A stretch of DNA of 52,477 nucleotides. Source: Thermoanaerobaculia bacterium (GTDB lineage: Bacteria > Acidobacteriota > Thermoanaerobaculia > Multivoradales > UBA5704). Below, piece by piece: positions 24,745-44,510 of this stretch. Position numbers and translations under genes: made by a program. Below the pieces are notes generated by a model. It made no database searches and was not told the origin of the DNA. It saw only the letters and a program-made list of their open reading frames with translations. Each line of letters starts with the position of its first letter. Position 1 is the stretch's first letter. The stretch is taken from the NCBI GenBank assembly GCA_044226625.1, contig JBGAGQ010000044.1, positions 1-52,477 on the forward strand, written 5' to 3'.

Positions 24745-24912
24745 TCAACAGCCGAGCCAAGTGCAGTTGCAATCCGTGTCCTGGAAGCAGGCCACGGTGG
24801 TCATACAGCAGCTTTCGCTTCCCGTGGTGCCACCGACGGGGAGCTGTCCCTCCTCCAACGCGCGAACGGTCTCTTTGGCCAGCACCAACCGACGGATCGT
24901 CGTCTTCTTCAT
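24745..24912 (-). CDS. Putative RiPP precursor peptide (55 aa), absent from the ORF track
   Basis: Hand translation: MKKTTIRRLVLAKETVRALEEGQLPVGG-TTGSESCCMTTVACFQDTDCNCTWLGC*. GAGGAG Shine-Dalgarno; double-glycine; 6 Cys and 8 Ser/Thr in the core. Confidence 0.8.
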   Translation of the reverse strand: MKKTTIRRLVLAKETVRALEEGQLPVGGTTGSESCCMTTVACFQDTDCNCTWLGC

Positions 24913-25193
24913 GGGAAGCTCCTCTCGGCCCCGCTCGCGAGAATGCGGCAGGCTCCTACAAGGATGGGGTGCGCGCGCCGGTCGGCTCGTGACCTGACTT
25001 GGAAGGGGATCGGTGCTCCGCTGCGTGCCGGCCCTGCCTTCGAAACCGCAGGGCCGGCACTCACTTTGGAGGGAGGGGAGAGCGGCGACGGCGGCTCAGA
25101 CCGTCGCCCTGTTCTTGGATACGCGCCCACACGAAGAAGGTTGCATGTTGGTCGCCTCCCCCCACAGGAACCGGGAGGTAGAATCTTCGGGCG

Positions 25194-25850
25194 ATGCAAC
25201 CGCGCCTCGAAGCTCTTCCGGCCGCTCAACGACGTCTCTGGCCCGAGCTGGCGAACGTGCCTTCGCGCTTCACCCTCTATGGCGGAACAGCGCTCGCTCT
25301 TCGGCTGGCGCACCGCATCTCTGAAGACTTCGACTTCTTCTCGACCTCACCGTTCATCCCGGACGAGCTGCAACTCGAAATCGGCCCTCTTGGAGCGGGA
25401 GATCGCATTCAGGCCTCGGCCAATACCCTCCTCCTGGTGGTGGATCGCGGAGGGCCGGTCAAGCTTTCCTTCTTCGGTGGCCTCGGCCTTCGGCGTGTCG
25501 CGGATCCCGAACCAATCGATTCCTTTGGGTGGAAAATCGCATCGCTGCTCGATCTTGCGGCTACCCAAATGGGCGCGGTACAGGGGCGCGCCGAGGCCAA
25601 AGACTACCTGGACATCGCGCAAATCCTCGAACAAGGGATCGGCATCGAGACAGCACTCGCTGCAGCGGCTGGAGTGTACGGGCCGAGTTTCAACCCGATC
25701 CTGTCGCTCAAGGCCCTTTCGTTTTTCGACGACGGCGACCTACCGTCCCTTGCGGCCCCGGTCCGCGCTCGGCTCAGCTCGGCGGCTCGCTCCGTCAAAT
25801 TGAACCAACTGTCAGTAATTCATCCCCTTCCCGGGGGCCTCGACCGATGA
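25194..25850 (+). CDS. AbiEii/AbiGii-family nucleotidyltransferase (type IV TA toxin-like)
   Basis: LYGGTALALRLAHRISEDFDFF and KDYLD motifs. Confidence 0.85.
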   Translation: MQPRLEALPAAQRRLWPELANVPSRFTLYGGTALALRLAHRISEDFDFFSTSPFIPDELQLEIGPLGAGDRIQASANTLLLVVDRGGPVKLSFFGGLGLRRVADPEPIDSFGWKIASLLDLAATQMGAVQGRAEAKDYLDIAQILEQGIGIETALAAAAGVYGPSFNPILSLKALSFFDDGDLPSLAAPVRARLSSAARSVKLNQLSVIHPLPGGLDR

Positions 25851-26161
25851 GAACGCTCGAAGAAGTGGCCAAGAGGTTGATTTGGTGGAAAACGCCAAAC
25901 GAAGCCCTCGCGGATCCTCGTCGATTTCTTGCCCAGGTGATGGTATTCGGCAACGTCGAGGACGTTCTAGCCGCGCGGCGCCGTTTTCCCGAGGCCGAAT
26001 GGCGCGCGGTGCTCGCCGAGCCTCCGACAGGGCTGTTCGATCCTCGCTCGTGGGCGTACTGGCATCTGGTCTTCGGCTTGGAAAAGCCCACGGCGCCGCC
26101 CAGTAGAGCCGCACTCCTCGAGAGCTTGCCTGCTCACCCCGGATGGACCTCTCAGACCTGA
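25847..26161 (+). CDS. Small partner protein of the AbiEii-like gene (putative antitoxin, 104 aa)
   Basis: ATGA overlap with the upstream stop; LIWWK, LAQVMVFG, FDPRSWAYW. Confidence 0.7.
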   Translation: MRTLEEVAKRLIWWKTPNEALADPRRFLAQVMVFGNVEDVLAARRRFPEAEWRAVLAEPPTGLFDPRSWAYWHLVFGLEKPTAPPSRAALLESLPAHPGWTSQT

Positions 26162-26170
26162 ACCACTGAA

Positions 26171-42632: not shown

Positions 42633-42657
42633 CGCGGATTCGAGGCAAACGCCCGTC

Positions 42658-44247
42658 CTATTGGATGTACCCCAACGACCGCAGGTCGTCCATCAGCTTG
42701 TCGTCCGCTTTGGAAGCCTGCCCGCTCGCACTCTTCCGTAGGCCCCAGGTCTTGATCTTCCGGAGCGGATGCCGCCGACGGAATTCCTCCCGGAAGAGCT
42801 GCGGGTACGGCTCGCCGTCGAAATCCTCGGCGACAGGAAGTCCGAGGCCGACGAGAATCGTCGGGGCGATGTCGTGGACGTCGATCTCCGCGAGATTCGC
42901 CTTGGGGTCGATATCCGGACCCGCGGCGATCAGAATGCCGTGGGTCGTCGTGGTGTGGGTGCCCGAGATCCGATCGATGCCCGTGACCGCGCCTTTCCAT
43001 GGCGTTCCCCGAACGAGCAACGTCTCCGAGGCTCCCACCCGCGAGACGCCGATCACGAAATCCGCGCCGCCGGCGGATTCCTTTGGACGGGCGTCGCGGA
43101 CAAAGAAGACCGGTTCGCCTCCGGCGTAGGTGACGTGGGCCAGGTCTTCTGTGAGGTGCGCTCGCACCGCGCCATGCTCCTCGGGGCGGACCCGTCCGCC
43201 TTTTTCGCGTCCGGCAAGTGAGAAGCGGACGAAGCGCGCCTGGCGGAAGTTTGGGGAAGCGTGGCTGTACACGCGGGTGCGGGCGAAGTCTACAGCCGGG
43301 CCCCGGTGCGCGAGATAACCCAATCGTTCGAGCACCGCATCGAGGTCGAGGAGTACCTTCGTCTCTTCCTCGCGCGCCGTGGCGTGAAAACCGTGATCGG
43401 AGACGACCAGGACGTTCGCCTCCGGCGCGATCTCGAGCAGTCGGCCAATCTCCCGATCGACCGCTCGATAGACGTTCGGTACCCGTTCGCGATTTGCCTC
43501 GAGCTCGGCAGGGGGAACCGGCGGAAACGCCTCGGGCTCGAAATACTTCCACGAGCGGTGGGAGACCACGTCGGGGCTCCGGAAGTAGAGCAGCATCAGA
43601 TCAAAATCTCCCTCGCGCAGGAGCTCCCGCGCGAAATACGAGTTCGATCGGTCGCGCCGCTCGGATTCCTCGTCGAGACCGAAGAGCGACGGCTCCTTCT
43701 CGGCTTGAGCTCGCGCCTTTTCGAACCGAGAGAGCGCCTCGGGAGGGGAGATCCGGTTCGGCAGATCGAGCAGGATACGGTCGGACACGAGCACGCCGCG
43801 GATCGGCTCGGCCGGCCACGACGCCCACCAGCCGAGAACGGCCACCTTCCGCCGGCCCGTCGTCGTCATGTTCCAGAGCGCCGGGACCTTGCGCAGGCCC
43901 GATGAGACCGGCACGTCTCCCTGCGCCGTCGGCACGACGAAGTCGGTAATGCCGTGCCTCTTTGGAACGACTCCCGTCGCGATCGTGGTCCAGATCACGG
44001 GAGACGAGTTGTAGGCTGTCTTCAGCCGGGTGCGCACACCCCGCTCGGCGAGCGCTTGGAGGTTCGGTAAATCTCCTTTCGCCCAGAGCTTCTCAATCAC
44101 CTTCCATTCTCCGCCGTCGATTCCGACGACGATCAGAGGACGGACCTTTCCGGGCGCGGACTCTCTCTCGGTCGGGCCGCAGGCGAACGCCGCTAGCGCC
44201 CCGAGCGCCAAGGCGAGAGATTTGAACCAAAAAAGGGAGGCGGGCAT
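42658..44247 (-). CDS. Alkaline-phosphatase-superfamily (nucleotide pyrophosphatase/phosphodiesterase-like) lipoprotein
   Basis: Lipobox AAFAC; VGIDG, SPVIWTTIATG, VSDHGF, DIAPTIL, LRSLGYIQ; ATG 44247. Confidence 0.85.
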   Translation of the reverse strand: MPASLFWFKSLALALGALAAFACGPTERESAPGKVRPLIVVGIDGGEWKVIEKLWAKGDLPNLQALAERGVRTRLKTAYNSSPVIWTTIATGVVPKRHGITDFVVPTAQGDVPVSSGLRKVPALWNMTTTGRRKVAVLGWWASWPAEPIRGVLVSDRILLDLPNRISPPEALSRFEKARAQAEKEPSLFGLDEESERRDRSNSYFARELLREGDFDLMLLYFRSPDVVSHRSWKYFEPEAFPPVPPAELEANRERVPNVYRAVDREIGRLLEIAPEANVLVVSDHGFHATAREEETKVLLDLDAVLERLGYLAHRGPAVDFARTRVYSHASPNFRQARFVRFSLAGREKGGRVRPEEHGAVRAHLTEDLAHVTYAGGEPVFFVRDARPKESAGGADFVIGVSRVGASETLLVRGTPWKGAVTGIDRISGTHTTTTHGILIAAGPDIDPKANLAEIDVHDIAPTILVGLGLPVAEDFDGEPYPQLFREEFRRRHPLRKIKTWGLRKSASGQASKADDKLMDDLRSLGYIQ

Positions 44248-44312
44248 ATGGAGGAGCCCGGCCGGCACACCGGTCGGGCTTGAGGCCGAAAACGATGGGC
44301 GGAGCTTGAATC

Positions 44313-44510
44313 CTAGTGGTCGGGGCAGTCCCAGCTGGGGTTGCAGACGCAGGAGAAGTCGATACAGGTCCCGCCGCAGCTGATCCAGCAGGTGAGGCAA
44401 TTGGTGTCGACGGTCGGCACGCCACCTGCCGCGCGGCGCAGGTGCGCCGCGGAGAGAACCGAAACGGTCTCGCGACGCAGGCTCAACTTCGATCTCGACT
44501 TTTTGTTCAC
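44313..44510 (-). CDS. Putative RiPP precursor peptide (65 aa)
   Basis: GTG start after GGAGG. MNKKSRSKLSLRRETVSVLSAAHLRRAAGG-VPTVDTNCLTCWISCGGTCIDFSCVCNPSWDCPDH*; 7 Cys and 7 Ser/Thr in the core. Confidence 0.8.
   Translation of the reverse strand: MNKKSRSKLSLRRETVSVLSAAHLRRAAGGVPTVDTNCLTCWISCGGTCIDFSCVCNPSWDCPDH

Follow-up and report, generated by a model that had tools for sequence, protein, structure and literature searches.

Two small genes and their leader

How would the products of two small, cysteine-rich genes be matured when no maturation gene lies beside them? The question is raised by contig JBGAGQ010000044.1 of a Thermoanaerobaculia bacterium (phylum Acidobacteriota), all 52,477 nucleotides of which were analysed and are called the window here (contig C35 in our numbering). 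An earlier note on this DNA had described two small minus-strand genes, 19.4 kb apart, as candidate orphan precursors of RiPPs, peptides that are made on the ribosome and modified after translation. Both open reading frames (ORFs) are real and have Shine-Dalgarno-like sites, and it is very likely that they are LanA-type precursor genes of one leader family. We call their products peptides A and B. They probably belong, with about 53 other LanA genes (about 55 in all), to a class I lanthipeptide system that no longer has a gene cluster because the cluster has dissolved, and, to judge from the genomics, it is likely that a distant LanB, LanC and exporter would mature them in trans.

24745..24912, minus strand: peptide A gene, putative LanA-type precursor, ATG start, 55 amino acids
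24919..24924, minus strand: Shine-Dalgarno-like GAGGAG (24924-24919), 6 nt upstream of the peptide A ATG
44313..44510, minus strand: peptide B gene, putative LanA-type precursor, GTG start, 65 amino acids
44516..44522, minus strand: Shine-Dalgarno-like GAGGAGG (44522-44516), 5 nt upstream of the peptide B GTG

The two peptides have the same layout: a Lys/Arg-rich N-terminus, the motif LxLx(K/R)ETVxxL, about 10 variable residues, Gly-Gly and then the core. A leader of the type LxLxKx5L with a Gly-Gly end is present in both, as LVLAKETVRAL...GG in peptide A and, with Arg for Lys, as LSLRRETVSVL...GG in peptide B. In peptide A, residues 1-28 form the leader, followed by a core of 27 amino acids with 6 Cys and 8 Ser/Thr, and in peptide B residues 1-30 are followed by a core of 35 amino acids with 7 Cys and 7 Ser/Thr. 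An alternative start for peptide B, the in-frame ATG at 44549, would give 78 amino acids, the form found as a protein-database entry; scoring of start codon and Shine-Dalgarno site favoured the GTG, because GAGGAGG lies 5 nt upstream of it. The earlier note had called the cores unrelated, and for A versus B this stands: their local alignment score of 38 is below the 99.9th percentile of shuffled cores (54), and they are unrelated beyond composition. The core of peptide B is not unique, though, as it falls in a family of 8 paralogues in the genome with a common SC(G/A)G(T/S)C motif. A Pfam search of peptides A and B gave nothing useful. None of the genome's LanB, LanC, C39, SPASM or YcaO matches is on C35, in keeping with the earlier observation that no maturase or exporter gene is nearby.

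A leader family spread over the genome

The genome (G000; 6.6 Mb, 67.7% G+C, 133 contigs) was searched with a strict leader regular expression on its six-frame translation, a scan that the earlier note had proposed, and then with a profile hidden Markov model (HMM) made from the resulting copies. The regular expression matched at 37 places, all 37 of them small ORFs with a Cys-rich tail. The HMM returned 55 ORFs of 48-83 amino acids at E ≤ 0.004, with the next match only at E 0.29, and the reversed six-frame translation gave no match at E ≤ 0.01, compared to 55 in the real one. Peptides A (E 1.2e-10) and B (E 4.4e-12) belong to this single HMM family, and the leader strings that had been quoted for them are correct. 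The 55 precursor genes form 44 loci on 32 contigs (36 single genes, 5 pairs and 3 triples), and as far as genomics goes, the proposed genome-wide peptide library is borne out. Each of the 55 ORFs is intact and has a start codon preceded by a match of 3-6 nt to AGGAGG; inspection by eye, with no motif finder run, showed this Shine-Dalgarno-like site as the only shared upstream motif. The family leader has about 28 amino acids and the form M(K/R)K..LxLx(K/R)ETLxxL..G(G/A), and, with the leader end placed by a script heuristic, 54 of the 55 precursors have Gly-Gly or Gly-Ala there. Most cores (39 of 55) are singletons within the genome.

The leader can be compared with NF038153, the NCBIfam model lant_leader_L1a ('class I lanthipeptide'), which has a curated cut-off of 22 bits. 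Peptide B scored 23.7-24.3 bits, above this cut-off, and a search of the genome with NF038153 gave 41 places at E ≤ 10, of which 6 were above the cut-off, peptide B among them. The earlier assignment to a class I lanthipeptide, pinensin-like leader that is cut at Gly-Gly agrees with NF038153 and with the accessible text of PMC7268733. Its suggestion that gene callers had missed such peptides did not hold up: of 15 precursors checked, 13 have an identical, NCBI-sourced entry in the protein collection, and a homologue of one precursor already carries the NCBI label 'class I lanthipeptide [Thermoanaerobaculia bacterium]'.

Lanthipeptide enzymes elsewhere in the genome

A search for synthetase and exporter genes, which the earlier note had proposed, located one full-length LanB, two LanC and one C39-peptidase ATP-binding cassette (ABC) exporter, all outside the window.

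C93:86992-90363: LanB, 1123 amino acids, glutamylation (N) and elimination (C) domains, unrelated genes around
C4:58628-59944: LanC1, 438 amino acids, full length, 128 bp after three precursor genes
C114:7232-8530: LanC2, 432 amino acids, full length, unrelated genes around
C93:132017-134380: C39-peptidase ABC transporter, 787 amino acids, C39, transmembrane and ABC domains, 42 kb from LanB

The LanB matches Lant_dehydr_N (1.7e-171) and Lant_dehydr_C (1.1e-67), and the best match of the exporter is TIGR03796, the peptidase-bearing bacteriocin type. Alignment to a solved class I cyclase (8byk) showed that the GxAHG, WCYG and CHG motifs are kept in both LanC proteins; we take these residues to correspond to the zinc ligands and catalytic His in NisC. 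A LanC-like domain in a protein of LanM size was not found in the genome, where the sole LANC_like matches are the ORFs of 438 and 432 amino acids, and matches to TIGR03897 were partial and far under its cut-off. The genome also has four SPASM-domain genes and one YcaO gene.

In the route that we propose, the leader of about 28 amino acids common to every precursor would be bound by the single LanB on C93, which would dehydrate Ser and Thr of the core via glutamyl-tRNA, the donor that class I dehydratases use according to the accessible text of PMC9993889. One of the two stand-alone LanC proteins (C4, C114) would then add Cys thiols to form lanthionine rings, and the single C39-peptidase ABC transporter on C93 would cut after Gly-Gly or Gly-Ala and export the peptide. 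All four steps would run in trans on chromosomally scattered genes. From the genomic evidence we infer both expression of the scattered precursors and their modification by these enzymes, and an antimicrobial or signalling function of the products is likewise presumed.

Several other genes lie near precursors or enzymes. A gene of the metallo-beta-lactamase fold (C4:59955-60824) begins 11 bp after LanC1 on the same strand. At C84:12514-18221, two precursors (15535 and 17115) have on one side an ABC transporter that includes a membrane domain (655 amino acids) and on the other an ABC ATPase (295 amino acids), which could be a local export or immunity pair; ATPases resembling this one sit near precursors on C93 and C106. 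Permeases of the MacB/FtsX type, of 800-1000 amino acids, form a large duplicated family of 36 loci (e.g. C23:39556-42123 and C111:8192-10681). Their association with precursors was rejected: 5 of the 55 precursors have one within 4 kb, compared to 3.0 ± 1.7 at random, and at least 5 were reached in a fraction of 0.17 of 1000 placements.

The same leader beside LanB and LanC in relatives

Canonical operons with the same leader were found in two relatives from the same order, G024 and G021, with the following gene orders.

G024:C127: precursor, LanC, LanB, one other gene, exporter
G021:C11: exporter, precursor, LanC, LanB
G021:C7: LanB, LanC, six tandem precursors, exporter

Among public genomes, a leader match lies within 10 kb of LanB at 33 of 80 LanB loci, and these 33 loci come from Acidobacteriota, Myxococcota, Actinomycetota, Bacillota and other phyla. 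Among 31 related genomes the leader is present in 19, all 19 of which have a LanB at E ≤ 1e-84 together with LanC; a LanB at E ≤ 1e-84 occurs in 2 of the 12 leader-negative relatives. Because related genomes are not independent, this co-occurrence is consistent evidence and not a statistical test.

The fold of LanB residues 1-800 with the leader of peptide B was also predicted. The score was 0.43, compared to 0.02 for the best of three controls, with at least 64% contact agreement between runs and a partner predicted local distance difference test (pLDDT) value of at least 46, on alignments that we made ourselves. Of 80 solved complexes, 58 reach the mark for a pass, as do 2 of 110 mismatched pairs, and passes at 0.60 or less comprise 7 of the 80 solved complexes and both of the mismatches that passed. 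Since NisB structures exist, the pass may reflect likeness to a solved complex, and the predicted fold hints only faintly at leader binding.

Core composition and the weighing of other readings

Disulfide-only peptides should favour even numbers of Cys, and each lanthionine takes one Ser or Thr per Cys. With the leader/core cut set by the script heuristic, the 55 cores contain 17.1% Cys, 14.6% Thr and 8.8% Ser, and the leaders 0.1% Cys. The number of Cys is odd in 31 cores and even in 24, and Ser plus Thr equal or exceed Cys in all 55, so that thioethers fit better than disulfides. This composition favours a lanthipeptide reading of the predicted cores without proving it.

Several observations weigh against maturation of a dispersed class I library. 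Just 3 of the 55 precursors adjoin any lanthipeptide enzyme, namely a LanC at 128 bp, and the LanB is 68 kb from the nearest precursor. One LanB acting on 55 unrelated cores needs an unusual substrate tolerance, which is undemonstrated in nature for class I in the literature that we found. Peptide A scored 18.6-18.7 bits with NF038153, below the cut-off of 22, so that by its leader it is classed as a member of the genome's own family with a sub-threshold match to the curated model. A scan around both genes found no sigma-70-type promoter, and no RNA run was listed with the peptide A locus. Finally, a radical SAM/SPASM gene is found 172 bp upstream of one of the precursors, C17:5762.

The 52 precursors that have no lanthipeptide enzyme nearby would suit undehydrated peptides with a double-glycine leader, exported and cut by the C39 transporter and either disulfide-folded or linear, resembling class II bacteriocins or signals, in which case only the three C4 precursors would be true lanthipeptides. 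The Gly-Gly or Gly-Ala leader ends, a sole exporter of the peptidase-bearing bacteriocin type, and cores that are very rich in Cys like those of disulfide-rich peptides would fit this as well. However, the odd number of Cys in 31 cores is unexpected for all-disulfide folding, every core has at least as many Ser and Thr as Cys, the leader is identical in type to that of the relatives' canonical LanBC operons, and it tracks LanB across genomes in 19 of 19 cases. We therefore consider such undehydrated peptides unlikely.

It is more doubtful still that some or all of the peptides are matured by another class of enzyme that reads a similar KLxLxKE..GG leader, for example radical SAM/SPASM enzymes acting on TIGR04149-type peptides. 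Peptide B has a weak match to TIGR04149 (13.4 bits, E 0.053), yet this is far under the cut-off of 25. As to the four SPASM-domain genes, one (C17:4223-5590) is followed on the same strand, after 172 bp, by precursor C17:5762-5986, but it matches best two haem enzymes, AhbD at 290 bits and NirJ2 at 278 bits, each with an unreached cut-off of 500, a gene for an Fe-S carrier adjoins it, and downstream ORFs resemble cytochrome oxidase genes when their translations are read by eye. Neither the other three SPASM genes nor the only YcaO gene share a contig with a precursor. A role of the C17 gene in peptide maturation is possible; in view of the AhbD and NirJ2 matches, a haem-related role was judged more likely, and the gene was rejected as the maturase. 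A class I system with a dissolved cluster remains our preferred reading.

Constraint on the cores and turnover of the genes

The protein collection has an entry identical to peptide A, in a 90% cluster of 5 distinct sequences of 55 amino acids, this one and 4 from other assemblies. Differences among the 5 fall on 6 positions of the leader and 2 of the core, and no Cys, Ser or Thr of the core is lost in any of them. A contig from an unrelated run spans the whole peptide A gene with 9 differences, 8 of which are synonymous. Peptide B has syntenic orthologues with conserved Cys in the congeners G001 and G002 (7 of 7 Cys kept in G002); its gene is missing in G003, G004 and G006, so that, this genome included, 3 of 6 members of the genus have it at the site. 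Among the 38 precursors recovered from G001, close counterparts were found for 14 of the 55 cores, with their Cys frameworks kept. This number is a lower bound, as the syntenic G001 orthologue of peptide B itself fell below the threshold. To judge from these comparisons, coding constraint acts on the precursor cores.

In relatives, two of the leader matches are interrupted by a stop codon in frame, G001:C24:59259-59363 (TAG) and G011:C507:5520-5636 (TAA), and these may be decayed precursor copies. That the orphan genes in general are decaying or silent leftovers of a duplicated, once-clustered precursor from which no peptide is made is very improbable: the missing RNA evidence, the two stop-bearing matches and the variable presence among congeners (A in 1 of 6, B in 3 of 6) would fit, but all 55 ORFs are intact with a start codon and Shine-Dalgarno-like site, the peptide A core is kept across the 5 cluster sequences with 8 of 9 nucleotide differences synonymous, and the 14 cores common to G001 keep their Cys frameworks.

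The peptide A gene lies in a short segment that five of five congeneric genomes lack, and the segment includes an inverted repeat.

24700..25024, no strand: segment carrying peptide A and flanking DNA, 325 bp, not present in the syntenic position of 5 of 5 congeners
24708..24736, no strand: GC-rich inverted repeat, perfect over 12 nt, loop of 5 nt, between a convergent TonB-receptor gene and peptide A

The genes flanking the segment align at 69-83% in the congeners, and the homologues of window positions 24699 and 25025 are 15-19 bp apart in G001, G002, G003 and G006 and 94 bp apart in G004. A blastn search of the genome found no paralogous DNA for the segment beyond a 32-nt leader match; because there is no DNA similarity outside the leader, the paralogues within the genome are old. 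At the edges of the segment, no target-site duplication or terminal inverted repeat above chance was detected, and an 8-nt direct repeat, GGAAGCTC, on both sides of the peptide A ORF is at chance level for 431 bp. The inverted repeat could form a hairpin; it has no T tail and was unlisted by the terminator scan, which gave just two weak overlapping sites, both within the peptide A ORF.

Distribution of the leader

The nearest relatives of the LanB are in metagenome-assembled genomes of Thermoanaerobaculia (Acidobacteriota). All 7 other genomes of the genus examined have leader matches, 16-56 each, as do 15 of 18 other genomes of the family (maximum 55), and 49 were counted in one genome from a second family of the order. 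In a relative from the Thermoanaerobaculaceae with a closed chromosome of 8.8 Mb, 26 leader copies are dispersed from 0.09 to 8.37 Mb, and the scatter is therefore no artefact of assembly. Sequencing runs place the organism of the window in bioreactor or activated-sludge communities. Genomes of Archangium, Cystobacter and Paenibacillus with a related LanB have 1-2 leader copies. In a class-wide sample of 121 genomes, including this one, 14 had a leader match, and only 4 of the 121 (G000, G001, G011 and G019) had at least 30 copies.

Genes around peptides A and B

Pfam searches of 9 large ORFs of the window matched unrelated families only. The neighbours comprise a TonB-dependent receptor, an AbiEii-like nucleotidyltransferase, an OPT transporter, a Ser/Thr kinase with tetratricopeptide (TPR) repeats, an alpha-2-macroglobulin gene with PbpC, and a type I phosphodiesterase; these are ordinary genes without a tie to peptide maturation. 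The AbiEii-like gene (25194-25850), of a type IV toxin-antitoxin family, adjoins the peptide A insert. At 34703-42632, the alpha-2-macroglobulin gene (1825 amino acids) is followed by a gene for a PbpC-type penicillin-binding protein, a customary gene pairing. A stretch at 45104-45300 is 93-95% identical across five congeners, compared to 65-82% in the surrounding DNA, and no tRNA was found there. Over the end of the TonB-receptor gene (24537-24735), two contig variants are present in a run that is possibly the source of the DNA, one of them with 18 differences and a 12-base insertion behind 24705, which suggests two strains in the sample.

Comparison with known systems

The leader of the TIGR04149 (GG_sam_targ_CFB) radical SAM peptides likewise has an N-terminal KLxLxKE-like motif and a Gly-Gly end. 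Unlike those peptides, B scores only 13.4 bits against a cut-off of 25, A is unmatched, and the window has no radical SAM gene. With class II double-glycine bacteriocins the precursors share a Gly-Gly or Gly-Ala pair as predicted cleavage site, and the genome likewise encodes a C39 ABC exporter; they differ in having a lanthipeptide leader family that co-occurs with LanB and LanC, and a composition and Cys parity that point to thioethers.

Closer likeness is found in class I. The accessible text of Walker 2020 (PMC7268733) describes class I precursors of Bacteroidetes with an LxLxKx5L leader, often with a Gly-Gly end, and a C39 protease in the cluster. Our precursors resemble these pinensin-type clusters in leader motif, Gly-Gly end and cores rich in Ser, Thr and Cys, and the separate LanB and LanC with a C39-peptidase ABC exporter are also those of class I LxLxKx5L/GG clusters, exactly such an operon being present in same-order relatives. 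The difference is that the cluster has come apart in this genome: unrelated genes surround each of LanB, LanC2 and the exporter, and of about 55 precursors at 44 loci only 3 touch an enzyme gene. Since the precursors are not beside LanB or LanC, we file the system as a variant and not as a standard class I cluster.

In its layout the system is like the prochlorosins and SyncA peptides of marine picocyanobacteria, in which one enzyme set (ProcM or SyncM) serves dozens of dispersed precursors with a conserved leader and diverse cores. Reported numbers are 29 precursors per ProcM (accessible text of the review PMC12328550) and up to 79 per SyncM (accessible text of PMC9872173). The repertoire varies between close relatives there, and here 14 of 55 cores are common to a congener. 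Unlike prochlorosins and SyncA, which are class II and made by a single LanM, the present system has a glutamyl-tRNA-dependent LanB and separate LanC with no LanM-size match in the genome, and its host phylum is Acidobacteriota, class Thermoanaerobaculia. Also unlike the prochlorosins, neither A nor B has a Nif11/NHLP leader family among its matches in NCBIfam and Pfam at E ≤ 10.

In the searchable papers, natural lanthipeptide libraries of one enzyme and many substrates are known only from class II of marine cyanobacteria, and the accessible text of the 2025 review on lanthipeptide promiscuity (PMC12328550) gives natural many-precursor cases for LanM enzymes only. We found no class I system with dozens of dispersed precursors and nothing on class I lanthipeptides of Thermoanaerobaculia, in a search that left most subscription journals and supplements outside, so that not found does not mean unpublished. 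The accessible text of PMC13083261, which brings lanthipeptides and Thermoanaerobaculia together, covers class II and class III clusters.

It looks as if a whole peptide library is served by one enzyme set here too, independently of the first such case. We lean slightly towards the view that a Thermoanaerobaculia lineage independently evolved a class I (LanB plus LanC) counterpart of the prochlorosins, with a single, highly tolerant dehydratase, few cyclases and 16-56 unrelated, fast-turning-over cores per genome, encoded as intergenic units of about 0.3 kb that are gained and lost outside clusters. If this is true, the making of RiPPs as libraries has arisen repeatedly in evolution, peptide engineering would gain a LanB/LanC pair that is permissive by nature, and hundreds of additional polycyclic peptides would be predicted from an uncultured phylum. 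It would also expose a blind spot of cluster-based genome mining: neighbourhood-based tools would likely miss the 52 of 55 precursors without an adjoining enzyme gene, a figure that counts such neighbours and is not the output of a cluster finder. In sum, the parts are those of the class I LxLxKx5L/GG type, and the architecture is that of the prochlorosin/SyncA type.

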